Assembly: GCA_964291235.2 (NCBI GenBank)
Contig: OZ219816.1
Coordinates: 2,043,729-2,107,728 of the forward strand
Reading direction: 5' to 3'
Source: Vicinamibacteria bacterium
GTDB lineage: Bacteria > Acidobacteriota > Vicinamibacteria > Marinacidobacterales > Marinacidobacteraceae
Length of the DNA stretch: 64,000 nucleotides
The stretch's first letter is position 1, and the number at the start of each line of letters is the position of its first letter. This document shows positions 10,582 to 54,829 of this stretch, in pieces. The notes under the pieces are model-generated. The model saw only the letters and a list, made by a program, of their open reading frames with translations. It did not search any database and was not told the DNA's origin. Made by a program: the position numbers and the translations under genes.

Positions 10582-10595
10582 CGGCGAGTGGATTT

Positions 10596-26375: not shown

Positions 26376-27512
26376 TTGAGCTCGGAACCGGCTACCCAGC
26401 CCGCGCGAGGCGGGCAGCGGCTTTATCTGGAGGACGGTGCCGGTTTTACCGGCGTCTCTTTCGGTGCCGCCCTCGATCATCCAGTCGCGGGGGAAGTTGT
26501 GTTCAACACCGGGATGGCGGGGTACATAGAGACCCTGACGGACCCGTCGTATCGAGGACAGATCCTGGTTCTGACGTATCCGCTCCAAGGGAACTACGGC
26601 GTCCCGCCGGCGCGCCCGGACGGTTCCATTGCCGGTCCTTTCGAGTCCGGCCGGATTCAGGTCCAGGGGTTGGTCGTCCAGCATCACGAACCTCACTACA
26701 GCCATCACGCGGGAGCCCGGTCCCTCGGCGCCTGGCTCGCCGCGGAAGGGGTGCCGGGGATTCAGGGCGTGGACACCCGCGCGCTCACCATGCGGCTACG
26801 GGAGGTCGGGACGATGCGCGGCGTGCTCTGCGACGCCGGCATGGAGGCGTCCGACGCCGTGGAGCAGGCTTCGGCGGTCGAAATGCATCGCCAGGTCTTC
26901 GAGCAGGTGGTGCCGCAGGCGCCAGCCCACTACGGCCCGGAGGACGGACCGGAAGTGCTGCTGGTGGACGTGGGCGCCAAGGACAACATCGTGCGCTCGC
27001 TCATCGCGCGGGGCGCCCGGGTTCATCGCGTATCCGGCCTCGCGCCGTTCGCCGGCGCCGCGCGATCCGCCGCCGGGATCGTCCTCGGGAACGGCCCCGG
27101 CGACCCGGGAGACCTGCAGGATCTCGCCCGGGAACTGCGCACGGTGATGGAGTGGTTCCCCGGTCCGATCTTAGGCGTCTGCCTCGGCAATCAGTTGCTC
27201 GCCATGGCCGCGGGAGCGCGGACCTTCAAGCTGCCCTACGGGCACCGCAGCGTGAACCAGCCGGTTCGGGATCTCGTCAGCGGCCGCTCTTTCATCACGA
27301 GCCAGAACCACGGATACGCGGTGGACGAAGCGAGTCTGCCCGACGGTTGGGTCCCGTGGTTCGAAAACCTCAACGACGGCACGAACGAGGGAATCCGGTC
27401 GCTCGGGCGGCCGTTCCGCAGCATCCAGTTCCATCCCGAAGCCCACCCCGGCCCCGAGGACACGGCCTACCTCTTCGACGATTTCCTGCAGGAGTGCAAG
27501 AGCAGCCCGTGA
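26376..27512 (+). CDS. carA: Carbamoyl-phosphate synthase small subunit
   Basis: GEVVFNTGM, LTDPSY, NGPGDP, GVCLGNQ, SQNHG, QFHPE. Confidence 0.96.
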   Translation: MSSEPATQPARGGQRLYLEDGAGFTGVSFGAALDHPVAGEVVFNTGMAGYIETLTDPSYRGQILVLTYPLQGNYGVPPARPDGSIAGPFESGRIQVQGLVVQHHEPHYSHHAGARSLGAWLAAEGVPGIQGVDTRALTMRLREVGTMRGVLCDAGMEASDAVEQASAVEMHRQVFEQVVPQAPAHYGPEDGPEVLLVDVGAKDNIVRSLIARGARVHRVSGLAPFAGAARSAAGIVLGNGPGDPGDLQDLARELRTVMEWFPGPILGVCLGNQLLAMAAGARTFKLPYGHRSVNQPVRDLVSGRSFITSQNHGYAVDEASLPDGWVPWFENLNDGTNEGIRSLGRPFRSIQFHPEAHPGPEDTAYLFDDFLQECKSSP

Positions 27513-30500
27513 CCACGGCGTCCGCGAAGCCACGCTCCGTCATCGTCCTGGGATCGGGGGCGCTCCAGATCGGCCAGGCCGGCGAGTTCGACTATTCCGG
27601 ATCGCAGGCGATCAAGGCGTTGAGCGAAGAGGGCGTCCGCACCGTCCTCGTGAACCCGAACATCGCCACCATCCAGACCAGCGAGGGAATGGCGGATCGC
27701 CTGTACCTGAACGCGGTCACGCCGCGCCTGGTCCGGCAGGTTGCCGAAGCGGAAGGCGTCGACGGGGTGGCGCTCTCGTTCGGAGGGCAGACCGCGCTGA
27801 ACTGCGGGCTGGAACTCGAGGACTGGTTCCGGGCCGCCGGAATCCAGGTGCTGGGCACCCCGGTCAGCAGCATTCGGGACACCGAGGATCGGGGCCGGTT
27901 CAACGCGCGGCTCGCCGAAATCGGGGTGCTCACGGCCAGGAGCATCGTCTGTCACGGCCGCGCCGAAGCCCGGGAAGCCGCGGCGGCGATCGGGCTGCCC
28001 CTGATGCTGCGGATCGGATTCGCCCTCGGTGGCAAGGGCAGCGCCATCGTGGAGACCGAAGCGGAGCTTGAGGCGGCGCTCACGAACATCTTCGGAGCCC
28101 ACGACACGAAACAGGCCCAGGTGCTGGTCGAGGAATCCCTCCGCGGCTGGAAAGAAATCGAGTACGAGGTGGTCCGCGACCGCGACAACAACTGCATCAC
28201 GGTCTGCAACATGGAGAACCTGGACCCGATGGGGATCCATACCGGGGAATCGCTCGTGGTGGCGCCCTCGCAGACCCTGAACGATGAGGAGTACCAACTC
28301 CTCCGCACGGTTTCCATCCGGACCATCCAGCACCTCGGGATCGTGGGCGAATGCAATGTGCAGTTCGCCCTGAGTCCCACGGGGGCCGACTACCGGGTTA
28401 TCGAAGTGAACGCCCGGCTTTCCCGTTCCTCGGCACTCGCCAGCAAGGCGACCGGCTATCCCCTCGCCTACGTCGCCGCAAAACTCGGGCTCGGGTTCAC
28501 CCTTCCCGACCTGAAAAACGCCATCACCGGAGTCACGAAAGCGTTCTTCGAGCCTGCGCTTGACTACCTGGTGCTGAAGGCGCCGCGCTGGGACCTCGGC
28601 AAGTTCCAGGAGGCCGGCACCCGCATCGGCAGCGAGATGAAGAGCGTCGGGGAGGTCATGGCCATCGGGCGCACCTTCCCCGAGGTGCTCCAGAAGGCGC
28701 TGCGCATGCTCGACATCGGCGTCCGGGGACTCGATTCCCACGCCTTCGACTTCGAAGATCGCCAGGATGAACTCGTCAACGCGACGCCGCGCCGGATCTT
28801 CGCTCTTGCCCAGGCCCTGAGGGAGGCCGTGGATGCGGGAACGGTGGGAGAGGCGGTTACCGAAATCCACGATCTGACCAGGATCGATCCCTGGTTCCTC
28901 TACGGCATCGCCGAGGTGATGCAAACGGAGGCCGATGTCGAACGCGGCGGCTGGCCAATTCCGGAGGCGACGCTCAGGAAGGCCAAGGAACAGGGGTTTT
29001 CCGACGAATCGCTCGAGTTCCTCACCCGAAGGGAACGGGGCGCGGCGCGCGCCGCCCGCCAGGACGCCGGCATCGGCCCCCACATCGCCCGCATCGACAC
29101 CCTGGCCGCCGAGTTCCCCGCGGAGACCAACTACCTCTACTCCACCTACCACGCCAGCAGCGACGAGGGCGTGGGGCTCCCGGCCGGGGACCGCCGCCGA
29201 ATCCTGGTGATCGGCTCCGGGGTCTATCGGATCGGCTCCTCGGTGGAGTTCGACTGGTGCTGTGTCAACGCCGTCCAGGCCGCCGCGGAACTCGACTGCG
29301 AGACCCTCATGCTCAACTACAACCCGGAGACGGTGAGCACTGATTACGACATCTGCGACAAGCTCGTTTTCGACGAGGTGAGCGTGGAGTCGGTTCTCGA
29401 TCTCGTGGAAAAGGAGCGGCCGGACGGGGTGGTGGTGAGCATGGGCGGCCAGATTCCGAACCGCCTGGCGATGCGGCTGCACGACGCCGGCGTTCCGATT
29501 CTGGGCACCTCGGCGGAGGACATCGACCGGGCCGAGGACCGCAACAAATTCAGTGCGCTACTGGACCGGATCGGAGTGGATCAGCCGCGCTGGGCCCACG
29601 TCACCGACGTGGCCGACGCGGAACGCATCGTGGAACAACTGGGCGGCTTCCCGGTGCTCGTTCGTCCGAGCTACGTGCTGAGCGGCGCCGCGATGTCCGT
29701 CGCGCACGAACACCACGAGCTCACGCGGATCCTGCGCAAGGCGAAGGCGATTTCCCCCGAGCACCCGGTCGTCATTTCCAAGTTCGAGGAGGACGCCCGC
29801 GAGATCGAGATCGACCTGGTCGCCAAGCAGGGCGAGGTCGTGCTCTGGGCGGTCAGCGAGCACGTGGAGGACGCCGGCGTCCACAGCGGCGACGCCACCC
29901 TCGTCCTGCCGCCCGTGGACATGACCATTCCGACGCTGGGCCAGGTGCGGCGCATCGCGCAGCAAATCGCCGGCGAACTGCGGGTTACCGGCCCGTGCAA
30001 CATTCAGTTGCTCCACCGCGACGGGATCGTGAAGGTGATCGAGTGCAATCTGCGGGCATCGCGGAGCCTGCCGTTCGTCTCCAAGGTGACCGGCCGCAAC
30101 TACGCGAAGGCAGCCACTCGCATCATGCTGGGCGCGGATCCGGGGATGGATCACCGGCCGCTCTACGAGCTTGAGCACGTCGGCGTCAAGGTGCCGCAAT
30201 TCTCGTTCTCGCGGCTCATGGGCGCCGATCCCCTGCTGGGCGTGGAGATGGCCAGTACCGGCGAAGTCGGATGCCTCGGCGATTCCTTCCACGAGGCGCT
30301 CCTGCACGGCCTGGTTGCCACCGGCTTCCAGCGCCCGAAGAAAGGGGTCCTGCTGTCGCTCGGCCCGCTTCGTTGGAAACACCGGTTCGTCCGCACCGCC
30401 CGGACGATGGCGGAGGAACTCGGTCTCAAGATCTATGCAACCTCCGGGACCTGCCGCGTGCTCCTCGAGAACGGCATCGAAGTCACGGAAGTGGCGCGGG

Positions 30501-30793
30501 TGGCCACGCAGCAGCGTCCCCTGGGGGAAGGCTTCGACCAGCCAGGCCCGCTCAGCGCTCTCGATCTCATCGACCGCGGGGAAGTGGACTTCGTGGTGAA
30601 CGTCCCCGTCGCCTTCGACCCCGAGGGCCGCCCGGACGGTTACCTGGTGCGCCGGCGCGCGGTGGACCGCGGAGTCCCGCTGATCACGGACCCCTCACTG
30701 GCCCGCCACGTGGTCACCGCCCTCGTGGCGCATGAGGAAAACACCCTCCGCGCCCGCGCCTGGAACGACTTTCTGGAGCCGCCGAGCAGATAG
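27509..30793 (+). CDS. carB: Carbamoyl-phosphate synthase large subunit
   Basis: IGQAGEFDYSGSQA, two ATP-grasp halves, C-terminal MGS-like domain; GTG overlaps the carA TGA. Confidence 0.97.
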   Translation: MTTASAKPRSVIVLGSGALQIGQAGEFDYSGSQAIKALSEEGVRTVLVNPNIATIQTSEGMADRLYLNAVTPRLVRQVAEAEGVDGVALSFGGQTALNCGLELEDWFRAAGIQVLGTPVSSIRDTEDRGRFNARLAEIGVLTARSIVCHGRAEAREAAAAIGLPLMLRIGFALGGKGSAIVETEAELEAALTNIFGAHDTKQAQVLVEESLRGWKEIEYEVVRDRDNNCITVCNMENLDPMGIHTGESLVVAPSQTLNDEEYQLLRTVSIRTIQHLGIVGECNVQFALSPTGADYRVIEVNARLSRSSALASKATGYPLAYVAAKLGLGFTLPDLKNAITGVTKAFFEPALDYLVLKAPRWDLGKFQEAGTRIGSEMKSVGEVMAIGRTFPEVLQKALRMLDIGVRGLDSHAFDFEDRQDELVNATPRRIFALAQALREAVDAGTVGEAVTEIHDLTRIDPWFLYGIAEVMQTEADVERGGWPIPEATLRKAKEQGFSDESLEFLTRRERGAARAARQDAGIGPHIARIDTLAAEFPAETNYLYSTYHASSDEGVGLPAGDRRRILVIGSGVYRIGSSVEFDWCCVNAVQAAAELDCETLMLNYNPETVSTDYDICDKLVFDEVSVESVLDLVEKERPDGVVVSMGGQIPNRLAMRLHDAGVPILGTSAEDIDRAEDRNKFSALLDRIGVDQPRWAHVTDVADAERIVEQLGGFPVLVRPSYVLSGAAMSVAHEHHELTRILRKAKAISPEHPVVISKFEEDAREIEIDLVAKQGEVVLWAVSEHVEDAGVHSGDATLVLPPVDMTIPTLGQVRRIAQQIAGELRVTGPCNIQLLHRDGIVKVIECNLRASRSLPFVSKVTGRNYAKAATRIMLGADPGMDHRPLYELEHVGVKVPQFSFSRLMGADPLLGVEMASTGEVGCLGDSFHEALLHGLVATGFQRPKKGVLLSLGPLRWKHRFVRTARTMAEELGLKIYATSGTCRVLLENGIEVTEVARVATQQRPLGEGFDQPGPLSALDLIDRGEVDFVVNVPVAFDPEGRPDGYLVRRRAVDRGVPLITDPSLARHVVTALVAHEENTLRARAWNDFLEPPSR

Positions 30794-30806
30794 CGTCGCC
30801 AGTCCG

Positions 30807-33800
30807 ATGGCAGGTAGCGACCGCTTCGTCACGGAATGGGATGGGACGCCAAGCTTTTGGAATTACCTTCTTGGTCTCGACCGGGCTGATCTCGTTGCCG
30901 AGTTGGTCCAGAATGATCTAGATCAGGAAGCGACTCTCACTGTCCTCTCTTTCGAGAGAGATCGGCTGGTTTGCGAGGGTGACGGCAGGCCGGTCGAAGC
31001 CGATGGTTGGCAGCGGTTGCGGAAAATGCAGGGCGCGGGCGACAGCGTCCCTGCCAAGCGGCGGAAGATCGGAGTCAAAAACCACGGACTCAAGACGGCA
31101 TTCACCATCGGTGATGAGTTGGAACTTAGCTCTGCAGGACAGCGGATTGTACAGACGCTCTATGCAAATGGGCGAGACAAGCCCCCATATCCTGGGGCAT
31201 CACCTGAGCCGCGTTCGGACCCGCATGCTCCGACCGACGGTTGCCGCGTCACCGTCTGGTATCGCACCACTGACCTCGAACCGCTTCAGGGGGAAGCCAG
31301 CGTGTTCGGGGCATTCGGTAAGCGTCAAATCGACGATTTGTTCGTGTCCGCTTGCACCTCGGCGCCAGCACAATTTGCCGGCATCGCCGTGCCAGAGGTG
31401 GCACCACGCTACGAGATCGTGCTGCGGCACTGGCGGCTCGGGGAAGCCCGCTTCTCCTTCTCGTGCACGCGGCCACGGAAGATCGCTCAGCGTATTGAAC
31501 TTTTTCGGCGTGCCTGTGCCGTCAGCGGGACCGCGACCGATTTACCGGAGGGCCTCAATGAACAAGCCGCTCGTCGCCTAGTTCCGGCGAAACGTCGCCT
31601 CAGCGAGCGAGTGCCCGACTTCTTCCGGCGTGACAAGCGTTTCTTTGTCGAAGTTGCTTGGCCAATAGACCGGCGTGGCAAACCTCTCCTAGGCGTCGGC
31701 CGATACCGCTATCCCATCGGATACCCGAGGGGTTCAGCCGAAGCACTTACTGGGCATGGTGCGCATATCAGTGCACCATTGGTGTCGGACAACGCGCGCC
31801 GTGGTCTGGCCAAGAATGAGGCAACGAACGTCGAACTTCTCGGCGCGTGCGAGTCGCTTCTGACGGACGCAATCGCACACTATGCCGTCCCCGCTTGGGG
31901 ACCACGCGGTCTAGACCCTCTGGTGCCGACTTCTGACGCCGACATCACTCGCGCAAGTGTCCGACACATCCTAGCGGCTCTTACCAAGCGGAACGCTATG
32001 CCCGTCCTGAGTTGGCGGAACGCTGCACAGTTACTGTGGAAACGTAGGAAACAGCAAGTGCGGGAGGCAGAGCGGCGAATCAGACTCTCAACGAATTCGA
32101 AGCGGACACCGGGGTACCGCTTCGTGGTACCGGCTGCGACTTGGACGTCCGGAAAGATCCATCCGGCTCTCTCGCTGCTCTGCCCATCGTCGGAAAAACA
32201 GCTCGATCCTCGTGTTTCCTCAGAACTCATTCGTCTCCTGGAGGATCAAGAAACCTCGGGCTTTAGTGAGGAGTTCGTCACTTTCGATGAGAACGATGTG
32301 ATTGATCGCGTGACGGGCGATGGAAACGAGTGGTTCCCCGGTATCTCGAATCCAACGCGTGTCTTTGCTGAACCATTGGTCGCCGGGGCACTACTCGATC
32401 TCACCGAGAAGGCGATCAACGAGAGAAAACGTGACCCCATAGACGCGGATGAGTTGATGGACAGCTTACTCCTCCCCGATCGTTTGGGGAGGGCAACGTC
32501 GTTTCGAGATTTGTATTCCAGTGCTCCCCTCCCACTCGACGTTCCCGGTCTGCGACTGCCGCGAGTTCTTCACTCTGACCTGGTCAACCACTCGATCTTC
32601 AGGCACACAACGTGGCGTCTCCCAAAGTACACCATGGCCGAGTTCTTGGACAGTGGCACGCTCCAAACCGCCGACGAGAATACTCGCAGGAACTTCTGGA
32701 ACTGGCTACACCACAACCATCGGCGGATCGGACGCCGTGAGCGACCCAAATTGGCTGATCTCGCCATTTGGCTCGATGTCAATGGGGTTCCGGGCAGAAT
32801 CGCTGACCTTTGCGAGCCACGGTCGCGCTTAGTTGGGCGTACCCTCGGCGAGTCCATTCGCAGGCCGCATGATCAGCTACGGCGCTCCAAACTGGTCTCC
32901 GCCCACAGCAGAGCGCGTGCGCGAATTCGACCCGTACCAACTCAAGACGAGATCACCGATTGGCTCACCACATGGACGGCTCGATTCAGCGAAGGCAAAA
33001 CAGCTGGCGCTGGGACAGCTCAGCGGCTACGTCGTTTCGAAGCTGGTCTCGCCACCCTGCTCAACGACGCCGCCATCACTCGCCTGCTGAGAAAGACCCA
33101 AGTCTCCTTGCCGGCTCTCGCCAAGGACGGTTCGATTCGGCCACGTGGTGCACTCCTCCTACCCACTCGCAGTAACAACCGCCTCGCGCTACCGCCCCGT
33201 TTCGTTCTCGAGGAGCAAAACCCCCGACACTCAGAAGCCGTTGCCCGACTTTCGGCATGCCAAAGTGAGGTGACTCCCACGATGATTCTCAGCGCGTTCC
33301 GAGAAGATCCTCGCAACTGGTCCGCGCTGCAGGCGCGCTTACGCGATTTCCTCCGCGTCACGGAGAGTGGCGACAACTGGCGGCTCGAACTCCGAGACAC
33401 ACCCTTTCTTCCGGTTGGTGAGCAGCCGCGCTCACCGTCCGAGTTGGCCTTTCGAGGCAACCGAGGCGACTACTGGGGTGAATGGAAGACCGTCATTCCC
33501 ATACGCGCCCTGTCCCAAGACGATCAGCGTCGTTACGTCGAGGCCGGCGTAACGTCGGGGCTACCCGACCCGAGCTCGAGCCGAGCCTTTTTTGAGTGGC
33601 TCTCTGCACAGGATTCGACCGCTCTTCGACGTCACATTCCGTGCGTGCTACGGCAGATTCTCCATCGAGACGGGCCAACGAAATGGGCCGAGTCCTTCTC
33701 GGATATGCCTTTCATCCCTGCGCGAGGCTACGGAGACAGGCTGGAGTTACTGTCGTTGCGCGCCGCGAAGCGCAGGCCGGTCTTTCTCCCGCACGCTAGC

Positions 33801-35036
33801 AACATCAACGAGACCATCATCCGCAGAGACCGGGCCGTGTGGCTAGTGATCGACCGCGTTCGTGAGGTGGCGGAGTCGATATCTGAGCCGCTGTCGAGAC
33901 TCCGCGTTAGATCGCTCCACAAGCACTTTCAAGAGCCGGTCCGAGTTACCGGGACGGGAGATGTCGCGAAGGCAACTACCGAGATCCGCGACCTAATAGA
34001 GGAGCTTCAAACGTCTGGGTTTAGGCGCTCATTCCGAAAACGACTAGGTGAGCTAGGTGTTGAGTCGCGACTACTGCGCAACAACTGGCACGATCGACTG
34101 GGAAGTATCAAGAACATACACTCCGCCGACAAGGTAGAAGGAGTCTACAGGTTCCGCGGGAAGCCGTATCTTTCTCCTATTGATGCTGGATTTGATCGCT
34201 CGACTGGCATCTTTTGGTTAAGAAACGATCAGATTACCGGTGCCGGTGCCGTATACCGCGCTCTTGCGGCGCAGATGGTGTTCAAAACGACGGCTCGTCC
34301 CATTGATCACTTCTCCCTGGAGCACGCTAGAGCGCTAGATATTCGGGATCCTACCTATGGATCTGTAGACAGATCTAAAACCCAGTCGGGTTACGAAGCA
34401 GCGGACAATGCCTACCAGAACGAGTCCGACGACGATGGGGACGACCGCCCCACGGAAGCCACCTTCGGGCACTCACCATTCGAACCGGATCCAGCGCGTA
34501 ATACGCCGCATCCTGTCCCGATCCCGTCCGGTGAACCGAGGACAAGACGACGCCAATATCGCAAGAGTCAACCAAGTTCCGAAGGTCGGGAGCACAATGT
34601 CAGCCAAGCGCCGCCGCTTGAGAGGGAGCAAATAAGGATTTTGAAGCAGAACCTCTATTCGAGCCACTGCCAAATGTGTTTGTGCAAGCATCCGCCACGA
34701 GAGTTAGCGCCAACCGGCAGTTACATCGAGTGGGAGGAAGTACGTCGACGGGTCGTTGAGGCGCACCACGTTGATCCTAAGTCGGGCGGTGGGGCGCGTC
34801 ACGCCGGAAACCTGATCCTTCTTTGCAAACTGCATCACGACAACTATGGACGTCGCCTTACCCGTGCTGCGATTACTTCCTCACTGAGAGCCGATGCAAG
34901 AAAGGACTCCGTTCAGTATGGAGGCAACTCGGCGATTCAAGGTGTGCGGATCGAAGTCTCAATTCCCGACACGGGAGAGATAGTCGAGTTCTTCTTCATG
35001 AAGGAGCATGTAGACTACTGGCTCTCGGAAGGCTGA
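30807..35036 (+). CDS. Large sacsin-like GHKL/HATPase protein with C-terminal HNH endonuclease
   Basis: N-terminal AELVQNDLDQ...EGDG...KIGVKNHGLKTAF; C-terminal CQMC...EAHHVDPKSGGG..HAGNLILLCKLHH; visibly lower GC than flanks. Confidence 0.75.
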   Translation: MAGSDRFVTEWDGTPSFWNYLLGLDRADLVAELVQNDLDQEATLTVLSFERDRLVCEGDGRPVEADGWQRLRKMQGAGDSVPAKRRKIGVKNHGLKTAFTIGDELELSSAGQRIVQTLYANGRDKPPYPGASPEPRSDPHAPTDGCRVTVWYRTTDLEPLQGEASVFGAFGKRQIDDLFVSACTSAPAQFAGIAVPEVAPRYEIVLRHWRLGEARFSFSCTRPRKIAQRIELFRRACAVSGTATDLPEGLNEQAARRLVPAKRRLSERVPDFFRRDKRFFVEVAWPIDRRGKPLLGVGRYRYPIGYPRGSAEALTGHGAHISAPLVSDNARRGLAKNEATNVELLGACESLLTDAIAHYAVPAWGPRGLDPLVPTSDADITRASVRHILAALTKRNAMPVLSWRNAAQLLWKRRKQQVREAERRIRLSTNSKRTPGYRFVVPAATWTSGKIHPALSLLCPSSEKQLDPRVSSELIRLLEDQETSGFSEEFVTFDENDVIDRVTGDGNEWFPGISNPTRVFAEPLVAGALLDLTEKAINERKRDPIDADELMDSLLLPDRLGRATSFRDLYSSAPLPLDVPGLRLPRVLHSDLVNHSIFRHTTWRLPKYTMAEFLDSGTLQTADENTRRNFWNWLHHNHRRIGRRERPKLADLAIWLDVNGVPGRIADLCEPRSRLVGRTLGESIRRPHDQLRRSKLVSAHSRARARIRPVPTQDEITDWLTTWTARFSEGKTAGAGTAQRLRRFEAGLATLLNDAAITRLLRKTQVSLPALAKDGSIRPRGALLLPTRSNNRLALPPRFVLEEQNPRHSEAVARLSACQSEVTPTMILSAFREDPRNWSALQARLRDFLRVTESGDNWRLELRDTPFLPVGEQPRSPSELAFRGNRGDYWGEWKTVIPIRALSQDDQRRYVEAGVTSGLPDPSSSRAFFEWLSAQDSTALRRHIPCVLRQILHRDGPTKWAESFSDMPFIPARGYGDRLELLSLRAAKRRPVFLPHASNINETIIRRDRAVWLVIDRVREVAESISEPLSRLRVRSLHKHFQEPVRVTGTGDVAKATTEIRDLIEELQTSGFRRSFRKRLGELGVESRLLRNNWHDRLGSIKNIHSADKVEGVYRFRGKPYLSPIDAGFDRSTGIFWLRNDQITGAGAVYRALAAQMVFKTTARPIDHFSLEHARALDIRDPTYGSVDRSKTQSGYEAADNAYQNESDDDGDDRPTEATFGHSPFEPDPARNTPHPVPIPSGEPRTRRRQYRKSQPSSEGREHNVSQAPPLEREQIRILKQNLYSSHCQMCLCKHPPRELAPTGSYIEWEEVRRRVVEAHHVDPKSGGGARHAGNLILLCKLHHDNYGRRLTRAAITSSLRADARKDSVQYGGNSAIQGVRIEVSIPDTGEIVEFFFMKEHVDYWLSEG

Positions 35037-35228
35037 TTCGCAGAAAGCGCAGCGCCATTCGGTGCTTTCTTGTTGTGGATCCAGGCGACACAGCGTAGGA
35101 TTGTGCCTATCGGCCCCAACAATGAACGTACGGCGTTGTTTAGCCATTCAAAGTGTGCTTGCAAGCGCGCCTCGCTGGGCGGAAGTCATATGAGCGCGTC
35201 CTAGGACGTTTAGCCCAGTTGGGGGTGG

Positions 35229-38200
35229 TTAGGAGATCGGCGGATTTTGAGGTGACCCTCCGACAGCCCGTGCAAGCTGGTCGTCGAGGATCCGCTTCAA
35301 ATAGGCGGGCGGCGACTCGGGGAAGAGGATGTGTTTTTCGGCGAAACGTGTCCGAGTCCAGGGTCCGTCGGGGTAGTGTTTGCGGAGGGTGTCGAAGGGC
35401 GTGGCGGAGATGATGTAGGAGTCCAAAGTGACTCCGGCAAAGCCGCTTCTTCGGCTCGCAGCGGGACCGATTTCGTCGCGGAGCCGCTCGTGGAGCCGCG
35501 CCTTCTCATCGTGTTCGTAGGCGGGCGCGTGCATCATGCCGTGCGGTTCGACGAAGACGATGTGCTGCCGGTTTTCGTTCTTGATCCAGAGAATGAAGTC
35601 CGGGTAGAAGCCCCTGTCCTCAAAGAAGCTGATGCCGGCCCCCCGGGAGAGGTTCCGCAGCAGGAAGAGCCTCACCCCGGAGAACGGGCCGTGTTGTGCC
35701 TCACGCCAGAAGTTGGTCAGATCCCGCACGAAATCCTTCTCGCTCTCGACCAGGGCCGGCGGTGACATCGGCAATGGGTCCCCTTTGAAACCGAGCAGCG
35801 GTTCGTACAGATGTCCGTCGAACTCTATTGAGCGTAGGCGCCGCAACCCCTGCCTCGCGGGATCCCGGAGTTGGTGGCCAGTAGCCAGGAAGTCCTCCAG
35901 TTCTGCGATGAAATCCCTGTGCGTCCCGTCATTCGGGACCTGGATCGTGTAGGCGGCACCCTCACCAACGGCCAGATTCGGATCCGCAGGCGTGAGCTGC
36001 CGGTATTCGAAGTGAGTCGTTTCCCATCGCTCCCTGCGGCGGCGGTAGACCGCGTCGAGCGCCTTGCACAGCAGCCTGGTGACGGCCTGCTGCAGCCGCT
36101 TCAGATCCGCCATCGTCCGAGGATCGAACAGGCTCTCCTCGGCGGCGAGTCGGCAGCGGGTGGCGATGGGGCGGAGAGCCAGTTCCCGGATGATGACGTT
36201 CCGGTATCCGCGGCGGTAGGCGTGGTCCAGGAGTTCGAGACGAACACGCTCCCAGTCCACAAGATCGAGCAGCGCATCCGATAGTTGGCGGGGTGCACGT
36301 GCGCCGAACTCCGTGGCTGCGGCGATCTCGTCGTCGCTGCTTCGGAAACCGCTGAACCGTGGGGAGAGGTCGCGTTCAACGGCCGCCGCATCTTCGTCGG
36401 CAAACAGGAAGGGCGGTCCGCTCCGGGCGAACGAAACGCCGTCCGGCAGTCGGGGCACGACGAGCCTCTGATCGAGGAGATCGTCCCGAATGTGGAACGG
36501 CAGCACGAACTCCCTCGGTTCCGCGATCCCCTCGGCCCGCAGGTACTCCCGGAACCTCTCCATATAGGATGCCCGGATCGCGAACACCTGAAGTGTTTCG
36601 AGCAGATGAAGATGTGGGGGATGCCCCGTTGTCCCGAGAGCCCGGCTGCGCTTCAGGCAGAAATCCTTGCCCCGGAGGCGGACGCCGCGGCCGAAGAGCT
36701 GGATGATCTGTGATCCCTCGCTCCTGCCGACGTTCAGGAGACCCATGCTCGAGACGCGCCATGAGTTCCAGCCCTCGATGAACCGCTTGGCCCCTACGAG
36801 TACATTGATAGGAGACCCGCGCTCGTTGATCGCCTCGAACAGTGCCTCAGTCATGGCGTCCTCGGCCACCATGAGGGAAGGCTCCCGGCTACGGACGAGG
36901 TTCCGGAACTCCCGAGGATCCCCAACATAGATGACCCCGAAGTAGTCGGCCGCGCCTGCCGCCCGCAGGCCGATCTCACCCGCGCCACTGCGGATCGTCC
37001 GTAGTTCCAACCCGCCGCTCCTCTGGGTCTGGAACACCCGCCTCAGAATGTCCGCGTAGAGCGCGTCGCCGTTCATCTGCCTTCGTTCCCGCAGAAGGGG
37101 AAACAGACCGCGGAACGGATCCGCGCCGCCCAGATCGCTTCCGATCGTCCCGTTCAGGATCCTGGTGATGGTCGCTGCCGCCCAGATCCGGTCCTTCAAG
37201 AAGTGATGGAAGAACTGGCAGACGGTGAGGACATCACTTCGGCCCTGCCCCTCCTCCTTGCGCACCGCGTTGACCTTGGCGCCCACGAACACCCATAGAG
37301 GAGCCTCGATCCCGTAGGGTGCATGCCCGCCGCCATCGAAAGCAAGTCGCTGTTCGTAGAACGTGAGTAGCCCCGCCAGCAGCAGGACGTACCCAGCGCC
37401 GCCCCCCGCGTCCTGTTCCAGATTGAGAACGCGAAAGTCTTTTCCGTAGCCGTCCTCGTAAAACCAGCGGTAGGAGTAGTCACAGAGGATGCTCCGGCCG
37501 TAGCGCGCCGTCAGGTCCCTATCGTTGGCGGCGGCAAGCGCCTGGCCGAACGTGGCGCTGTACTCGAAGGTGAACCCCGTTTCCGAGAGTGCCTCGCGTA
37601 CCTTGCGCCACGCTTCTCCGCCGGATCCTTTGTGGCCCTCATCCACGAAGATCAGGTTCCTTCCCTGGAAGGACTCGACGGGGACCGAGACCCCCTTGCC
37701 GCGCTTCTCCTCGACCAGCTTCGTGATCTCTATGACCGCCACCGTGTTCGCGCCCGAAAGGCCCGCCGGAGAGTCGAAACGGCGCATCGGAACCCCGGAA
37801 AGCTCGGCCTCGCGGAGGTGCTGCGCACTGAGCCCCTCGTTGGGCGTCACCAGCAGGATGTTGTCGCGAAAGTTCTGGTCGTAGTGGAGGAACTGCCGGT
37901 AATTCAGGTGGAGCAACAAAGTCTTGCCGCTTCCGGTCGCCATCCAGAACGCCAGCCGGTCGAGGTCGCGCTCCTCGAAATCCGATAGCTGGTCCGCCCG
38001 ATGGGGCGATCCGCGGCGCTGTTCAGAAACCGACTGGTTTAGTGAATCGAGCAGTAACGCCCGGCTTTCGGCGCGACGGTGAAGGAAAAGCTCGGCGGCC
38101 AGAGCGGCGGCATGCTGGAAATAGCGGAGCGTGATGGCGTGCGCGGCGCGCTTCGCGTTCATCCGGGCGAGGTGAGACTGGATGTTCTCGTCGTATTGCC

Positions 38201-38429
38201 TCAGGTCGTCCTCGCCGATCCGAAGAGCCGAACCGCGCGAGAGGAGCCGGAGCGCAACGAAGCTCCGTCCCTCCGCATCGAACCCCGGCCCGACGGCACT
38301 CTCGTGCAAGTCTTTCCGCAGATCGGCCGCCGACTTGTAGCCAAACTCGCCAGCGACCCAGTGCACCAACGAGAGCTGGTCCACCAATTTCGGTGATCTG
38401 TTCGACGCCCCGCCCGGTTTCCGTCCCAC
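35229..38429 (-). CDS. res: Type III restriction enzyme Res subunit (SF2 ATPase + PD-(D/E)xK nuclease)
   Basis: MATGSGKT, FVDEGH, EYSATF, EGWNS, QLFGRGVR, FYPDFILW...FVEPHG. Confidence 0.9.
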   Translation of the reverse strand: MGRKPGGASNRSPKLVDQLSLVHWVAGEFGYKSAADLRKDLHESAVGPGFDAEGRSFVALRLLSRGSALRIGEDDLRQYDENIQSHLARMNAKRAAHAITLRYFQHAAALAAELFLHRRAESRALLLDSLNQSVSEQRRGSPHRADQLSDFEERDLDRLAFWMATGSGKTLLLHLNYRQFLHYDQNFRDNILLVTPNEGLSAQHLREAELSGVPMRRFDSPAGLSGANTVAVIEITKLVEEKRGKGVSVPVESFQGRNLIFVDEGHKGSGGEAWRKVREALSETGFTFEYSATFGQALAAANDRDLTARYGRSILCDYSYRWFYEDGYGKDFRVLNLEQDAGGGAGYVLLLAGLLTFYEQRLAFDGGGHAPYGIEAPLWVFVGAKVNAVRKEEGQGRSDVLTVCQFFHHFLKDRIWAAATITRILNGTIGSDLGGADPFRGLFPLLRERRQMNGDALYADILRRVFQTQRSGGLELRTIRSGAGEIGLRAAGAADYFGVIYVGDPREFRNLVRSREPSLMVAEDAMTEALFEAINERGSPINVLVGAKRFIEGWNSWRVSSMGLLNVGRSEGSQIIQLFGRGVRLRGKDFCLKRSRALGTTGHPPHLHLLETLQVFAIRASYMERFREYLRAEGIAEPREFVLPFHIRDDLLDQRLVVPRLPDGVSFARSGPPFLFADEDAAAVERDLSPRFSGFRSSDDEIAAATEFGARAPRQLSDALLDLVDWERVRLELLDHAYRRGYRNVIIRELALRPIATRCRLAAEESLFDPRTMADLKRLQQAVTRLLCKALDAVYRRRRERWETTHFEYRQLTPADPNLAVGEGAAYTIQVPNDGTHRDFIAELEDFLATGHQLRDPARQGLRRLRSIEFDGHLYEPLLGFKGDPLPMSPPALVESEKDFVRDLTNFWREAQHGPFSGVRLFLLRNLSRGAGISFFEDRGFYPDFILWIKNENRQHIVFVEPHGMMHAPAYEHDEKARLHERLRDEIGPAASRRSGFAGVTLDSYIISATPFDTLRKHYPDGPWTRTRFAEKHILFPESPPAYLKRILDDQLARAVGGSPQNPPIS

Positions 38430-38436
38430 GGTCGGG

Positions 38437-38778
38437 CTACTCCTCCCCGAGGACGGCGTTCAACGGCTGGATGAGTCTCGGGATCTGAACGGAAACGGTC
38501 ACATGCAGCCGCTCTTGAACGACCTCGCCATAGCCGTGTGCCAATTGATTGCGCATGCCGACCACCTGTCGCCAGGGTATCTCGGGATGCTGCGCCCGAA
38601 ACTCGGTCGAAACACGATTGGCCGCCTCACCCACGGTCATCACCTGATACCGAAGTGCGGAGTCCCCTGTCCGGTCGTTCTGTAGCGCGTCGACGCTCGC
38701 ATTCTCGGGAGTCTCCACGGCCGCCATCGCGTATTCCCGCATGTCGCGCAGCGCCATGTCGTCAGTCCGACGACCCAT
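38437..38778 (-). CDS. HepT-like HEPN RNase toxin (DUF86)
   Basis: VGEAA, HPEIPW, MRNQLAHGY (RX4HXY). Confidence 0.88.
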   Translation of the reverse strand: MGRRTDDMALRDMREYAMAAVETPENASVDALQNDRTGDSALRYQVMTVGEAANRVSTEFRAQHPEIPWRQVVGMRNQLAHGYGEVVQERLHVTVSVQIPRLIQPLNAVLGEE

Positions 38779-39068
38779 AGAAGACCTCCACAGACCTAGC
38801 GACCTCCTCCTGCATCCACGGCCGCAACGCTCGAAACTCAATGGTCTCCGCCTTGCGCCCCACAATGGCTGTGAGCCCGTCCTGTCGGTCCACCAGTTCA
38901 AATAGGCCGAAACGCGCGTCCGGTCGCAACTCCGCGACCAGGTCCACGTCGCTCTCTGCCCCGAAGTAGTCCCGAATCACTGAGCCGAACAACGAGAACT
39001 TCCGAATCCGGTGCTTGTCGCAAAACGCCGCGAATCGCGTGCCGAGGAATCGAAATCCGGAGGCTCAC
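38762..39068 (-). pseudogene. MntA-like minimal nucleotidyltransferase antitoxin, apparently frameshifted near 39033
   Basis: GTG at 39068 (overlaps the mod TGA) reads MSLRISIPRHAI. The continuation AAFCDKHRIRKFSLFGSVIRDYFGAESDVD (GSX10DXD) lies in the adjacent frame, one extra base away. Confidence 0.72.
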
Positions 39069-41995
39069 GAGGCCACTTCCGCGAACATCAGGCGCTTGAA
39101 TTCCGGGTCCAGCGACCGCGCTCTCTCAATCACGCTATCACCGTTCACATACACAACCTCCGCACCTTCGGTCAGCCCTTCCCGCTTTACCCACTCCCAC
39201 TCGTAGTCAAAATCCCTAGTCGCCCAACCATCGATGTCTCGCCAGATCACGACTGTCTCCCCATCCGCAGCCTCTCCGGTGAGGACCAGATAGCGGTGCC
39301 TCTTCTCGCCGTCCTCCCGGTACAGTGCCCGGCGTGTGCGGACGCGCATCCCGATCAGAAGGCTAAACGTTTCCGGCAAATCTATCTTGCGCGGCTCGGT
39401 CCGTCCTTTGCTGCGAGTTGAGAGTGTGTAATCGAACGGGCGAGACAGTCTTTTTACGTTGAGTAAGGCGTTGCTGTCGCGTGCTTCCGCGCCCAGCACG
39501 TAACGTAGCGCATAATCATCAAACGGGAGTCTACGTACTTCCTTGTTGAACTCTATGTTGTTGAGCGAATCCTCATATGACTCTAAACGAACATACTTGA
39601 CCACCCCGCCACCGTCATACTCCACAGTCCGACTGATACCGACCTTCCTTCCACGTAGTACTTGACGCATCCTCCACAACATGTCGGTATCGAAATAGTC
39701 GCCCTGCTCCACGGAAATACATCTTCTCCCGAGTTTCAAAGCGACTGCCGCAGTGGTCCCGCTACCACCAAAAAAATCAAGCACCAGATCATTCTGTTTC
39801 GACGATACCTCAAGCATACGACGAACAAGTTGCTCTGGTTTCTGGGTGATCTCTGCCCCATTCGGTGTGTACTCCGCGGCATTCCTCTTAATCTTGTTGG
39901 AGTGAAGCGACTCATAGTCACTGCAGTTCCACGTATCCTCCATGTTGTAAGGAGTCGTCTTCTCGTTAAGTCCTAACCTATAGTTCCGGCCATCCACTCC
40001 CACCGCCGTGACCTTCAGCGCATTAGCGGTATTTTTGGGCAGTTTCCACGCATCCGCGATAGCACGAAGCTCTGAGTCAATACTAGCCTTTGTAAAGGTT
40101 AAGCACGGAATCTTTGCATCTCTCTTCGAGAACATCGGTTGTGGCGACTTTCCGTAGAGGAGGATGGTTTCGTGGTTCCTTACGTACCTGTCCGCCGCGG
40201 TCTTGTAACCCGATACCCAACCAATCCGCCACACAATCTCATTCAGGAGCGTGGCCTCTCCGAAGAGGTGGTCCAGGATCATGCGTCCGTAGTGAACCGA
40301 GTTGTGATCGAGATGGAGATAGAACGATCCGTCAGGCGTCAAGAGCTGCCTACCGAGAGCGACGCGGTCACGTAGCATCGTGGACCAAGTCGACGTCCTG
40401 TACTTGTCCTTGAACAGAAACTGGGACGTCTCCGTGTTGAACGGAGGATCGATGTAGGTGCACTGTATTCGCTCGGAGAAACTAGCGCGCAGGAGGTTGA
40501 GCGCCTGCCAACTGTCTCCATGGATAAGAAGGACATCAGTATCCTCGGCCAAACCACCGGAGCCGAGACCACCGCGGAGCAACTGGTCAGTAAACGTCGA
40601 TGGAAAATGTCTTGTGTCCAGTGGCAGAGTCGCATTATCGAGGAGGAACATCAGTCGACGCTCCACGCTCGGAATGTCGATTCCAAACACGGCCTCCCAC
40701 TCCCGCCACTGCTCTTCCCGAGAGGCGACTTGAGCATGAAGTGCGTGCGGCACGCGACTCAAAGAGACCAGGTACTGGGCTTCCACGACGAACTTCCGCT
40801 TTTCCCAGAGCATCTTCTGGAAGTCTTCGAACTGGGCCAAGAAGGCGATGATGCGTTCCCCAACTGTTCGGAGCAGGCGCATCATCTGGAACCAGCCCTC
40901 GGCGCGCTCCTCGCCTCCGGCTTGGAGCGTGCCGAGCAAGACCACCTCATTCTTGACGTAGAAATCCAGCTCCCGCGTCAGGAAGCCCGAGAGGTCCCTG
41001 TGGATGAAGAAGTCGGAAGTGTTACGGCGCGTGTACTGCCGGAGGTGGTACGTAAGCAGAGTTTCGGTCTTGCCGTCAGAACCGACTGGGCGCACCTCAT
41101 CGAGCGCCACGAGGCATTCCGTATGAGCCGAAACAGCCTTCCGGATCGCGAGGGCAGTTTCCTTCAGGAGCGCCAACCGGGCGGTTTCGGCCCGTTTGCC
41201 GTGGCGCGCCTGTTCAGAGCCGGTAAGGGGGCGATACTCGAACGGGACCACAAGCTGCTGCTCTGCCTCATCCCAGGCAATTTCCGAACCCCGAGCGACG
41301 AAGAAGCGGCGGTCGCCCTTCACGTTGTCGTGCTCGACATCGGCCTCCCGGAGTTCAAACCGAACGGTGATGTCGGTCGCGCTCTGAAACTGATAGTCGC
41401 GGAAGTGCTCGGCGCTCTTGACGTAGTACTGGTCCGCCGTCGCCCAGTGGAACAGAACTTCCTCGCCGTTGTAGGGAACCGCGTAGCGATGGTCCTTGGA
41501 ATAGCGGCGCTTTGAGATGAAGTCGCCGTCCTCGTAGTAGCGACTGAAGAAGTTGTAGAGGCGGTTGTAAGCCTCGGTCTCCATCGCTTGGGCGCTGCGC
41601 GCGCCGCTCGCTACTTCCCGCGCATCCACATACCTCCGGCCAAGGGGAGTGTTGCGGAAGGAAGACCGCAGATTGCCGTCGGCGTCCAGTGCCTCCGGGC
41701 CAAACGTGGTGCGGACCTGCTCGGCCAACTCCTCTAGGGCCGCCGCTGCCGCTGCTTGTTCGGCAACCTGTCCCCGACTGAGTTCTTCTTCGACCCGCTT
41801 TGGCAGATCCTCGTCGATGAACTGCCGAATCGCATCCCGCTTGTGATTGAGGATCCGGTAGATCCCGAAATCCAGATCGGCGCAGTCGAACTGGAACAGT
41901 TCGCGAAGGAGATCCTGAAACTTGGCGAGCGGGGTGTCGGTCACGGTTTGCGGAACGGATGGCTTTCGCTTGGGGCGACGGAAGCGCCGTGCCAC
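39065..41995 (-). CDS. mod: Type III RM DNA methyltransferase Mod subunit
   Basis: FQFDCADLDFGIYRI, YIDPPFN (motif IV), TQKPEQL, DFFGGSGTT (motif I), beta order; start may be GTG 41944. Confidence 0.92.
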   Translation of the reverse strand: MARRFRRPKRKPSVPQTVTDTPLAKFQDLLRELFQFDCADLDFGIYRILNHKRDAIRQFIDEDLPKRVEEELSRGQVAEQAAAAAALEELAEQVRTTFGPEALDADGNLRSSFRNTPLGRRYVDAREVASGARSAQAMETEAYNRLYNFFSRYYEDGDFISKRRYSKDHRYAVPYNGEEVLFHWATADQYYVKSAEHFRDYQFQSATDITVRFELREADVEHDNVKGDRRFFVARGSEIAWDEAEQQLVVPFEYRPLTGSEQARHGKRAETARLALLKETALAIRKAVSAHTECLVALDEVRPVGSDGKTETLLTYHLRQYTRRNTSDFFIHRDLSGFLTRELDFYVKNEVVLLGTLQAGGEERAEGWFQMMRLLRTVGERIIAFLAQFEDFQKMLWEKRKFVVEAQYLVSLSRVPHALHAQVASREEQWREWEAVFGIDIPSVERRLMFLLDNATLPLDTRHFPSTFTDQLLRGGLGSGGLAEDTDVLLIHGDSWQALNLLRASFSERIQCTYIDPPFNTETSQFLFKDKYRTSTWSTMLRDRVALGRQLLTPDGSFYLHLDHNSVHYGRMILDHLFGEATLLNEIVWRIGWVSGYKTAADRYVRNHETILLYGKSPQPMFSKRDAKIPCLTFTKASIDSELRAIADAWKLPKNTANALKVTAVGVDGRNYRLGLNEKTTPYNMEDTWNCSDYESLHSNKIKRNAAEYTPNGAEITQKPEQLVRRMLEVSSKQNDLVLDFFGGSGTTAAVALKLGRRCISVEQGDYFDTDMLWRMRQVLRGRKVGISRTVEYDGGGVVKYVRLESYEDSLNNIEFNKEVRRLPFDDYALRYVLGAEARDSNALLNVKRLSRPFDYTLSTRSKGRTEPRKIDLPETFSLLIGMRVRTRRALYREDGEKRHRYLVLTGEAADGETVVIWRDIDGWATRDFDYEWEWVKREGLTEGAEVVYVNGDSVIERARSLDPEFKRLMFAEVAS

Positions 41996-42193
41996 CTTCC
42001 GGCGACCGCCGAAGCACCGGCCCTCAGCGCGAGGCGGAGTCTATCGGTCGGTGGAGCGGGTCGGGTACAGCAGACACGCGAACAGCCCGCCCGTGCGGCC
42101 CGTCCAATGCGGGCGGGAGCAATCGTCATTTTGCCGAGCTCCGGTCAAACGCCGCGATCGTCGTGGCCCCGTCGCTTCCGGATTCCGATGGGT

Positions 42194-42313
42194 TCAGGTC
42201 TGCCCGTGTCCACCGCCGACCCTGAGGTAGTCCATCACCTCCGAGGAAAGCCAGAGGGTGGTCGCTACCTTGGATCCTGCGACCGGGGACGGCTCCGGCG
42301 GACCGCCGCCTCA
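42194..42313 (-). pseudogene. Degenerate BrnA-type antitoxin fragment
   Basis: Manual translation: RRSRPRSQDP, frameshift, KVATTLWLSSEVMDYLRVGGGHGQT-stop. Resembles the BrnA pattern RGRP...K...TLRLS.EV..YFRA.G.GWQTR. Confidence 0.55.
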
Positions 42314-42327
42314 GCGCATTTCTCGGG

Positions 42328-53889: not shown

Positions 53890-53926
53890 GGGCGAACTTG
53901 TACCAGAGGCGTGCAAGAATCCGGGC

Positions 53927-54808: not shown

Positions 54809-54829
54809 GCGACGGGGGCGGGCAGCGCC

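Follow-up and report, generated by a model that had tools for sequence, protein, structure and literature searches.

The 64,000-nucleotide stretch of Vicinamibacteria DNA analysed here (the window) carries a gene whose product is, as judged from sequence profiles, distantly related to Tiamat, a phage-defence protein, and which probably functions as a one-gene defence nuclease. The family is of a kind only recently outlined, in an October 2026 preprint. Since an HNH-swapped ‘Tiamat-like Type IV-A’ is already present in the preprint 10.64898/2026.09.30.754977, we regard the window protein as a divergent variant and not as a new system.

The ORF listing gives a single open frame on the + strand spanning 30732-35036; the start at 30807 was taken from the database copy, P0005, and agrees with the N-termini of homologues. 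The GC content of the gene is 0.586 (GC3 0.622), compared with 0.667 (GC3 0.83) for carB and 0.69 for the rest of the window outside the island described below. These values and the ORF listing agree with the preliminary description of a lower-GC ORF of about 1409 codons, convergent with a type III res gene. The layout proposed there, in which a GHL ATPase of sacsin type is followed by a long core lacking annotation, a linker and finally HNH, was recovered by structural models and profile searches, as follows:
30807..35036, + strand: whole gene, 1409 aa plus stop, a Tiamat-like GHL ATPase with HNH nuclease; intact ORF, identical to P0005
30834..31916, + strand: GHL (Bergerat) ATPase and S5-like transducer, residues ~10-370
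30900-30923, + strand: N-box E32/N36/D39 (ELVQNDLD, residues 32-39)
31068-31094, + strand: GxKNHG lid (IGVKNHGLKT loop, residues 88-97)
31917..33941, + strand: core of helical bundles and recurring β-hairpins, residues ~371-1045 (~700 residues), with a period of ~100 aa from residue 555
33954..34346, + strand: zincin/metalloprotease-like fold lacking HExxH, residues ~1050-1180, from AlphaFold models and searches
34347..34601, + strand: disordered acidic/Pro-rich linker, residues ~1181-1265
34455-34520, + strand: conserved linker motif, residues 1217-1238
34602..35033, + strand: Zn-finger HNH (His-Me) nuclease and C-terminal β extension, residues 1266-1409
35051..35076, + strand: terminator-like hairpin and T-tract, 15 nt past the stop codon; a pattern match from a consensus scan

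A consensus scan for sigma-70-like promoters found none in 30000-42600.

The N-terminal module has the Bergerat fold followed by an S5-like transducer that is characteristic of GHL/GHKL ATPases, along with motif I in the form ExxxNxxD. Of 36 full-length representatives with identities as low as 25%, at least 35 have residues E32, N36, D39, G58, G60, K91, N92, H93 and G94, and the candidate transducer arginine, R331, is retained in at least 35 of 36. The sacsin-type ELVQN box and divergent glycine loop (IGVKNHGLKT) noticed earlier are both present. Motif II departs from the canonical DxGxG with its adenine-contacting Asp: only G58 and G60 are invariant in the alignment of representatives, position 57 being E, L, Q, S, R, T, A or I and position 59 N, D, G, V or R. 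The aligned Tiamat-type proteins likewise lack a canonical DxGxG at the matching position. Since the Asp is unconserved and only xGxG is kept, ATP binding by the window protein is assumed. The NCBIfam model of the sacsin N-terminal ATP-binding-like domain, NF047352, matched at E 2.3e-6 with 28 bits, under its 50-bit cut-off, over residues 54-132 as numbered on a longer reading of the ORF.

The relationship to Tiamat is carried by this module. An hhalign comparison of the family profile with eight proteobacterial TmtA-type proteins bearing NOV_C tails gave a probability of 85.7% and E 5.5e-6 across residues 27-367 (292 columns), placing a conserved Arg, R331, opposite R305 in the Tiamat proteins and identifying a homologous ATPase-transducer module. 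This eight-sequence profile superseded a comparison with a single TmtA-like sequence (L037), in which the motifs aligned but the match was not significant (probability 0.31). A second line of evidence comes from the relative P0136, which shares 33% identity with the window protein across 1209 residues, yet ends in NOV_C (PF13020; 36.1 bits versus a 22.1-bit cut-off), its tail matching the TmtA model PDLC03964 (1.8e-10). The preliminary description had not recognised a named system; the homology of the ATPase-transducer and the presence of Tiamat's NOV_C nuclease in P0136 now supply a named relative. The family has swapped effectors, its members carrying either HNH or NOV_C. P0136 is the only one of 35 full-length representatives with NOV_C, and the window protein ends in HNH instead of a C-terminal NOV_C/DUF3883 domain.

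Tiamat in the strict sense combines an Hsp90-like ATPase, a DUF3684 core (TPR-like repeats, Fold B and a metalloprotease-like fold that is inactive) and a NOV_C nuclease. The PADLOC check suggested earlier was run, and the window protein matched no model, TmtA included, at E <= 0.1, nor at E <= 10 when searched as three pieces. It matched neither Pfam SACS nor DUF3684; SACS or DUF3684 is present in Atlas neighbours. DUF3684 (PF12449) gave two weak below-cut-off matches among 301 genomes of the phylum, and none in the search of the source genome (G000). Ten of 22 scanned relatives matched TmtA at E <= 1: nine weakly and collinearly (E 7e-4 to 0.04) and the tenth, P0136, through its NOV_C tail. 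When 20, and later 15, TmtA-like open frames were searched with an HMM of residues 1-1190, only weak collinear matches (<=17.7 bits) were obtained. Comparing the 800-residue core with that of Tiamat by profile revealed no similarity (0.6%), and a search of 15 TmtA-like proteins with the family HNH profile gave no significant match (best E 0.65).

The middle region of about 1000 residues, flagged at the outset as unrecognised, indeed has no Pfam or PADLOC match. Support for the recurring L/FLP..G..R..L segments reported earlier is partial: models place β-hairpins at about residues 555, 655, 769, 868 and 968, but in hhalign comparisons of internal segments only two of 21 pairs reached P ~1e-3 and the other 19 were not significant. 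The predicted acidic/Pro-rich linker is present: in the AlphaFold model, pLDDT is <50 at residues 1181-1223 and 1246-1266, flanking the conserved motif, within which it rises from 64 (residues 1221-1230) to 88 (1231-1240). Across 32 sequences, E1217, G1221, H1222, P1224, P1227, N1232, P1234 and P1238 show no variation. We consider it unlikely that the protein is a modification-dependent (type IV-like) restriction enzyme, in which, by analogy with McrA and TagI, the core would read modified DNA, the HNH domain would cut and ATP would drive translocation or clamping. Searches with Pfam, NCBIfam and PADLOC found no modified-base reader (SRA, EVE, DUF262 or similar), although some 700 core residues are functionally unannotated. 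The modification dependence and the abortive-infection role suggested earlier are both conjectural.

The C-terminal domain has the β-β-α-metal core of a His-Me finger nuclease, with catalytic His, Asn and metal-binding His. This triad (H1321, N1335 and H1344) is retained in at least 35 of 36 representatives, to 25% identity, consistent with the initial assignment of a Zn-binding HNH; the predicted Zn ligands are C1288, C1291, C1340 and H1343. The window protein scores 17.3 bits against Pfam HNH (PF01844), below the 21.4-bit gathering score, and the model is matched at E <= 0.01 in seven of 32 family members (best E 7.7e-4). Foldseek with the C-terminal model returned zero matches at E <= 0.001, and a homodimer prediction with two copies of residues 1265-1409 gave no verdict either way (scores 0.00, 0.44 and 0.00). 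Two Zn-binding cysteines of the domain are lost in eight of 35 full-length representatives. Such losses, together with the unconserved DxGxG Asp and the HNH-like folds of Type IV-A, which according to the preprint typically lack catalytic residues (10.64898/2026.09.30.754977), are what would be expected if the enzyme domains were relics and the protein served as a scaffold or chaperone with no catalytic role, a function that has been proposed for sacsin. However, the N-box, lid, candidate transducer Arg and HNH triad persist in at least 35 of 36 representatives, the cysteine-less clade included, and conservation of ATPase and HNH residues down to 25% identity argues for selection on catalysis. 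We regard such a non-catalytic role as highly improbable.

With 623 representatives at 50% identity, the family is a large one, and its distribution is patchy. A database search with the window protein gave 238 matches, the best 120 of which are near-full-length homologues with 50-62% identity, while the gene was found in none of 40 relatives and in three of 401 genomes of the class; the single-protein query of genome contigs returned one locus. Disrupted copies were seen at L013/L016, L015, L017 and L023 and in G246 and G356. In the window, carB and a gene for an aminotransferase flank the insertion that holds the gene:
30794..42327, no strand assigned: lower-GC insertion, 11.5 kb, GC 0.602
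35229-38429, − strand: type III res (PADLOC REase_III, 1.7e-130; PADLOC/Pfam), convergent with the target gene
38437-38901, − strand: HepT-like ORF (PADLOC/Pfam)
39065-41995, − strand: type III mod (PADLOC/Pfam)

The gap between carB and the aminotransferase gene measures 0.2-4.1 kb in five of five relatives, compared with 11.5 kb here; the gene was acquired horizontally, by insertion. No integrase, transposase or flanking repeat was found in the island, direct or inverted matches at its edges being short, imperfect and at chance level, and the window contains no tRNA. A tblastn search of 50,697 phage records gave no match, and no relatives lie on viral contigs. We treat the genes of the insertion as context and not as a demonstrated functional system.

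Restriction-modification (RM) or defence-model genes accompany the family in nine of approximately 23 independent neighbourhoods (the window, L007, L008, L009, L010, L011, L014, L028 and L031), and relaxase, T4CP, transposase or integrase genes in five (L001, L009, L012, L026 and L027), which fits the defence surroundings first suggested. Fourteen of the approximately 23 neighbourhoods lack a defence gene, many contigs being short. No partner gene is conserved across approximately 22 independent neighbourhoods, near-duplicate loci aside (an HNH_2 gene recurs in only two), in keeping with the single-gene unit originally proposed. Its further suggestion of a backup for the RM system found no support. 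The two do occupy one lower-GC insertion of 11.5 kb, in convergent orientation and separated by 192 nt; UvrD-type helicase genes, one of them also with a PD-(D/E)xK nuclease domain, flank locus L007 on either side; and Tiamat-like genes are described as often adjoining helicase-nucleases and adenine methyltransferases (preprint 10.64898/2026.09.30.754977). Yet type III RM occurs in none of the approximately 22 other neighbourhoods, neighbours vary between loci, a terminator-like site lies 3′ of the gene, and convergent genes are not co-transcribed. An accessory or backup nuclease forming one composite system with the adjacent type III RM is therefore very unlikely.

Alternatively, the gene could be cargo of integrative or conjugative elements, serving the element through addiction, exclusion, inter-element competition or non-defence DNA processing. 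The five neighbourhoods with mobility genes, the patchy distribution, the many decayed copies and the approximately 14% of Tiamat-like proteins assigned to non-defence neighbourhoods in the preprint (10.64898/2026.09.30.754977) are in line with this. Against it, tblastn of 72,556 plasmid records gave no match, no transfer gene is constantly associated, and the window island lacks integrase, transposase and flanking repeats. We judge a role as element cargo to be improbable.

Overall, we think it likely that this is a horizontally mobile gene for a defence nuclease that acts by itself and belongs to the Tiamat/sacsin branch of GHL ATPases. From other GHL ATPases and Bacillus cereus Tiamat, for which a preprint abstract reports ATP hydrolysis, nicking of duplex DNA and cutting of ssDNA, we infer ATP hydrolysis, dimerisation, DNA cleavage, the thing sensed and a protective effect. 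ATP binding would close and dimerise the ATPase-transducer module; the repeat core and dead zincin-like domain may form the surface that senses or clamps foreign DNA or protein; and the Zn-finger HNH, on its flexible linker of approximately 85 residues, would be licensed to nick or cut DNA. A more elaborate version, which we consider possible but doubtful, is a separate, unclassified Tiamat-like lineage with a competent Zn-HNH, in which the motif at residues 1217-1238 docks on the dead zincin-like domain and keeps the nuclease off until ATP-driven GHL clamp closure on foreign DNA. The Pro-rich motif might there act as a pseudo-substrate of the zincin-like domain. If true, this would show concretely how gating might work across the entire Tiamat/NO VEIN/sacsin group.

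Tiamat is a defence protein with eukaryotic relatives, NO VEIN and sacsin. As the window family is invisible to PADLOC and Pfam, defence-system censuses using those libraries miss it. Its size, its conserved ATPase-lid, N-box and HNH triad residues, its compact, well-understood HNH nuclease and the natural exchange of HNH for NOV_C on a scaffold that is otherwise collinear recommend it for studying the control of a tethered nuclease by a GHL ATPase. Should it prove protective, models of the family belong in defence-finding tools; if not, the reach of Tiamat-like annotation is limited accordingly.

Sacsin itself has three ATPase modules with DnaJ and HEPN domains and no HNH, and the match of the window protein to human sacsin SR1 (PDB 5v44) falls under the curated cut-off (28 versus 50 bits). 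TagI and EcoKMcrA, HNH modification-dependent restriction enzymes without an ATPase, have N-terminal modified-base readers, a counterpart of which was not detected in the window protein. MORC/paraMORC RM-like systems are described as multi-gene operons with SF2 helicases or methylases, the HNH being a separate protein (Iyer et al. 2008, PMC2292703); in the window protein the HNH is part of the same chain, and no conserved helicase/methylase/nuclease operon was found across approximately 22 neighbourhoods. Like VcSduA of Vibrio cholerae, described as an N-terminal GHKL ATPase, a clamp-like middle and a C-terminal Shedu DUF4263 nuclease that the ATPase is proposed to control (PMC12137116), the window protein is a single GHKL ATPase-nuclease chain. 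VcSduA differs in its PD-(D/E)xK DUF4263 nuclease, far shorter length and canonical GHKL motifs I-IV, and the PADLOC search detected no sequence relation. The closest correspondence is with Tiamat (TmtA, a B. cereus single-gene antiphage protein) and plant NO VEIN, whose domain order, as described for Tiamat (GHL ATPase and transducer, helical-repeat core, HExxH-less metalloprotease-like fold, disordered linker and C-terminal nuclease; 10.64898/2026.09.30.754977; 10.64898/2026.09.30.755639), is that of the window protein. The differences are an HNH in place of PD-(D/E)xK, a GxKNHG lid where the Tiamat-type set has GxFGxGF, and a core that cannot be aligned to that of Tiamat. Within the Tiamat-like types outlined in the first of these preprints, an HNH-like fold replaces the nuclease in Type IV-A and a helicase-nuclease neighbour marks Type IV-B (10.64898/2026.09.30.754977). 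Locus L007, with its flanking UvrD-type helicase genes, one bearing a PD-(D/E)xK domain, resembles Type IV-B as so described. Compared by description, the window protein has the Type IV-A architecture, in which an ATPase and core of Tiamat type are followed by an HNH-like C-terminus, but whereas Type IV-A folds are said typically to lack catalytic residues, its family keeps the triad almost throughout.

The target gene lies in a single open frame on the plus strand (30732-35036 in the ORF listing), within which the public-collection copy, P0005, starts at 30807 and comprises 1409 residues; this start agrees with the N-termini of ten homologues. The gene and its surroundings are as follows.

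27152-30793: carB, its stop 14 nt ahead of the target gene start
30807-35036, plus strand: target gene, Tiamat-like GHL ATPase with HNH; open frame, equal to P0005
34455-34520: Pro-rich linker motif (residues 1217-1238), invariant in 32 sequences
35051-35066: terminator-like hairpin 3′ of the target gene, from a pattern scan
35229-38429, minus strand: type III res (PADLOC REase_III, 1.7e-130)
38437-38901, minus strand: HepT-like HEPN ORF, 154 aa (PF01934, E 6.8e-17)
39065-41995, minus strand: type III mod (MTase_III, 1.7e-132)
42328-43638: aminotransferase gene bordering the block

The preliminary description had picked out a lower-GC ORF convergent with type III res, and this is borne out: the target gene has a GC content of 0.586 (GC3 0.622), against 0.667 (0.83) for carB and 0.69 for the window outside the block, and faces res across a stop-to-stop gap of 192 nt. 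The block as a whole (30794-42327) has a GC content of 0.602. Its minus-strand genes run in the order mod, HepT-like ORF, res; because only 163 nt separate the HepT-like ORF from the mod stop, there is no space for an MntA partner. The HepT-like ORF gave no PADLOC match; HEPN genes are reported to cluster with RM operons (PMC3710099, Table 1), in a source that also covers sacsin. Elsewhere in the window, two neighbouring large minus-strand ORFs (52127-55486 and 55759-58470; 1119 and 903 aa) lack a Pfam match at E <= 1e-4 and have a GC3 of 0.67-0.68, below most window genes. A 1009-aa plus-strand ORF (8613-11639; GC3 0.66) has asparaginase domains confined to its final 320 residues, the first 690 being unannotated, and is followed by a second asparaginase gene.

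The block is an insertion between carB and the aminotransferase gene. The distance from the 3′ end of carB to the aminotransferase gene is 11.5 kb in the genome holding the window (G000) versus 0.2, 0.8, 1.1, 1.2 and 4.1 kb in all five relatives searched (four congeneric, the fifth from the same family). A search of the block for a tRNA, an integrase, a transposase or a convincing flanking repeat found none. The junction also varies in length among the relatives themselves (G004, G008, G009, G014 and G017; longest in G008), and may mark a hot spot for repeated insertion. The target gene was found in G000 alone among 41 genomes, 15 of them other members of the genus, and in three of 401 genomes in a sample of the class; of the two further class-level matches, one is fragmented and contains a TGA stop, and only a C-terminal remnant survives of the other. 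Homologues disrupted by frameshifts or stops, or reduced to remnants (L013/L016, L015, L017, L023, G246:C6 in G246 and G356:C1 in G356), are consistent with frequent decay, while part of these copies, metagenome ones included, may be assembly errors.

Neighbourhoods were compared for the window, 28 loci from metagenomes and one from a genome. Merging near-duplicates (L013/L016, L014/L033/L025, L018/L019 and L021/L022) and leaving out two loci without neighbours (L015 and L023) gave approximately 23 independent neighbourhoods, in which 108 neighbour ORFs of at least 100 aa were scanned with Pfam and PADLOC. RM or defence-model genes were present in nine.

Window: type III RM and HepT
L007: UvrD/GajB-like helicase gene on either side, with a PD-(D/E)xK domain in the upstream one
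L008: ThiF/E1-E2-like, multi-ubiquitin, HTH + CapP-like M78 pair
L009: HTH + CapP-like pair
L010: HNH gene
L011: MkoA fragment
L014: type I RM, HNH gene
L028: nicking endonuclease, C5 methylase
L031: HNH gene

Toxin-antitoxin components occur in two additional neighbourhoods (Phd in L018, PIN in L021). PADLOC matches with another Pfam explanation were discounted, namely RecD-like or DpdH (relaxase or TraA helicase), DrmD (IstB), mad3 (ABC transporter) and JetC (MCP). In an all-against-all BLAST of the neighbours, none was common to independent loci bar an HNH_2 gene in L010 and L014. The defence-gene setting anticipated for homologues is seen in nine of about 23 cases, with no conserved partner. 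A much less likely reading casts the protein as an aid to the convergent type III RM system; against this, type III RM is absent from every neighbourhood other than the window. Mobile-element genes appear in five neighbourhoods (L001, L009, L012, L026 and L027), and cargo serving a mobile element is a further rival reading. In L007, the UvrD + PD-(D/E)xK gene (2-2170), the homologue (2524-6795) and a second UvrD-like helicase gene (6838-9543), just 43 nt 3′ of the homologue, share one strand and may form a three-gene operon resembling Type IV-B of a recent preprint (10.64898/2026.09.30.754977). The HTH + M78-peptidase pair (PADLOC HTH_VI, CapP-like) lies immediately upstream of the homologue in the unrelated loci L008 (3547-4973) and L009 (754-1899), which suggests CapH/CapP-style damage-responsive control in some family members.

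A word-indexed search returned 238 matches to the window protein, the best 120 of which, 1315-1510 aa long, share 50-62% identity with it across 91-99% of its length; the sole informative source name was ‘HNH endonuclease (signature motif containing protein)’. Nine sequences sharing 31-58% identity with the window protein gave a profile of residues 1-1190, which matched 623 of 1.84 billion representatives at E <= 1e-3; tightening the threshold to 1e-10 left 496, and to 1e-30, 254. Among the 150 matches listed the greatest length is 1443 aa, so bigger fused forms are absent there. A 32-member alignment is nearly gap-free, with a mean column identity of 65%. On the window protein, Pfam detected HNH alone and NCBIfam a sacsin N-terminal match, both below threshold, while PADLOC gave no match, even at E <= 10 with the protein in three pieces.

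The order of parts first proposed, an ATPase, a long unannotated core, a linker and an HNH domain, is upheld by models and alignments. Two AlphaFold2 models, each from a 38-row alignment, covered residues 1-740 (mean pLDDT 86.8, pTM 0.78) and 701-1409 (82.6, 0.58). Foldseek matched the first to Hsp90, GRP94, GyrB, MutL and MORC3 (E 7.5e-9 to 3e-7), and residues ~10-370 are predicted to be a GHL ATPase with transducer; the second had no match at E <= 0.001. The linker is predicted to be disordered (pLDDT <50 at 1181-1223 and 1246-1266), apart from a short stretch of higher values (64 at 1221-1230, 88 at 1231-1240) overlapping the Pro-rich motif, whose residues E1217, G1221, H1222, P1224, P1227, N1232, P1234 and P1238 are invariant. 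Because pLDDT rises to 88 here against <50 in the flanks, the model suggests that the motif docks onto a folded domain.

When the window protein was aligned with 35 full-length representatives of at least 1340 aa (36 proteins in all, down to 25% identity), the ExxxNxxD residues E32, N36 and D39, together with G58, G60, K84, G89, K91-N92-H93-G94, R331 and N341, proved to be kept in at least 35 of the 36, as are C1288, Q1289, H1321, N1335 and H1344 of the HNH region. In DxGxG, the canonical Asp varies across the set. Zinc ligands (CxxC...CxxH) are retained in 26 of the 35 representatives, 24 by strict pattern and two (P0137 and P0192) added by eye. Eight others (P0138, P0142, P0145, P0148, P0149, P0152, P0153 and P0154) have lost two Zn-binding cysteines while retaining HH..N..H, a clade that may correspond to the preprint's ‘HNH-like folds lacking catalytic residues’. 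A scaffold without catalysis is a rival reading to set beside these counts.

The remaining representative, P0136, has a different C-terminus. It shares 33% identity with the window protein across 1209 collinear residues and ends in a NOV_C PD-(D/E)xK domain (PF13020, 36.1 bits vs a 22.1-bit cut-off), which matches the nuclease end of the PADLOC model PDLC03964 for TmtA, or Tiamat, a single-gene antiphage protein (1.8e-10). HNH and NOV_C have therefore been swapped on one scaffold within the family, and P0136, with the same 1190 residues and NOV_C replacing HNH, is a natural effector swap. Of the 22 relatives scanned, nine more gave weak TmtA matches (E 7e-4 to 0.04) that were collinear and fell within the ATPase, the transducer or the mid-core. 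Tiamat-type genes of the same phylum, gathered with model PDLC03972, were found in 20 of 401 genomes; G000 had no match. Among 15 full open frames, eight have D...EVK-type NOV_C tails, five SF2-helicase motifs and two other tails, and the target-family HNH is absent from all. Aligned by hhalign with the eight NOV_C-bearing proteins, the family profile matched over 292 columns (residues 27-367; 85.7% probability, E 5.5e-6), R331 pairing with the conserved Arg of that Tiamat set; the cores on their own gave no match (0.6%). ESM-Atlas neighbours of the whole protein bear PF25794 SACS; those of residues 400-1190 include clusters with DUF3684 in 17-18% of members (score 0.93, few shared features), a lead only.

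We favour, with some reserve, reading the gene as a mobile stand-alone unit for an ATP-controlled HNH nuclease of the Tiamat/sacsin branch, whose most likely role is to protect against phages or other mobile DNA. A type IV-like enzyme is a less likely competing reading. Against a defence nuclease stand the missing PADLOC match, a core unalignable to that of Tiamat, the unconserved adenine-binding Asp and neighbourhoods that are mostly short or uninformative. Tiamat from B. cereus is reported to hydrolyse ATP, nick dsDNA and cut ssDNA (10.64898/2026.09.30.754977). If the window protein resembles it and other GHL ATPases, ATP would drive dimerisation, the core would act as sensor and the tethered nuclease would then be released.

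The same preprint lays out Tiamat as an ATPase with transducer, TPR-like repeats, ‘Fold B’, an inactive metalloprotease-like fold, a disordered linker and a PD-(D/E)xK nuclease, and catalogues ‘Tiamat-like’ types with a replaced nuclease; a second describes the same Tiamat/NOV architecture (10.64898/2026.09.30.755639). Other relevant reports concern RM-like operons that contain MORC and paraMORC, in some cases alongside HNH genes (PMC2292703), and VcSduA, a GHKL-Shedu fusion (PMC12137116); a literature search on sacsin/GHKL/MORC with HNH and on Tiamat/TmtA found no further GHL-HNH fusion of this kind. The initial view that this was no named system holds in that the protein is absent from current defence libraries, but Tiamat-type relatives exist, as hhalign and P0136 show. 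Because the window protein matches no TmtA model and has an intact HNH triad, the data suggest that its family lies outside the preprint's Tiamat-like set or at its edge. The window protein belongs to a kind lately described in that preprint, of which it is a divergent variant with an HNH domain.
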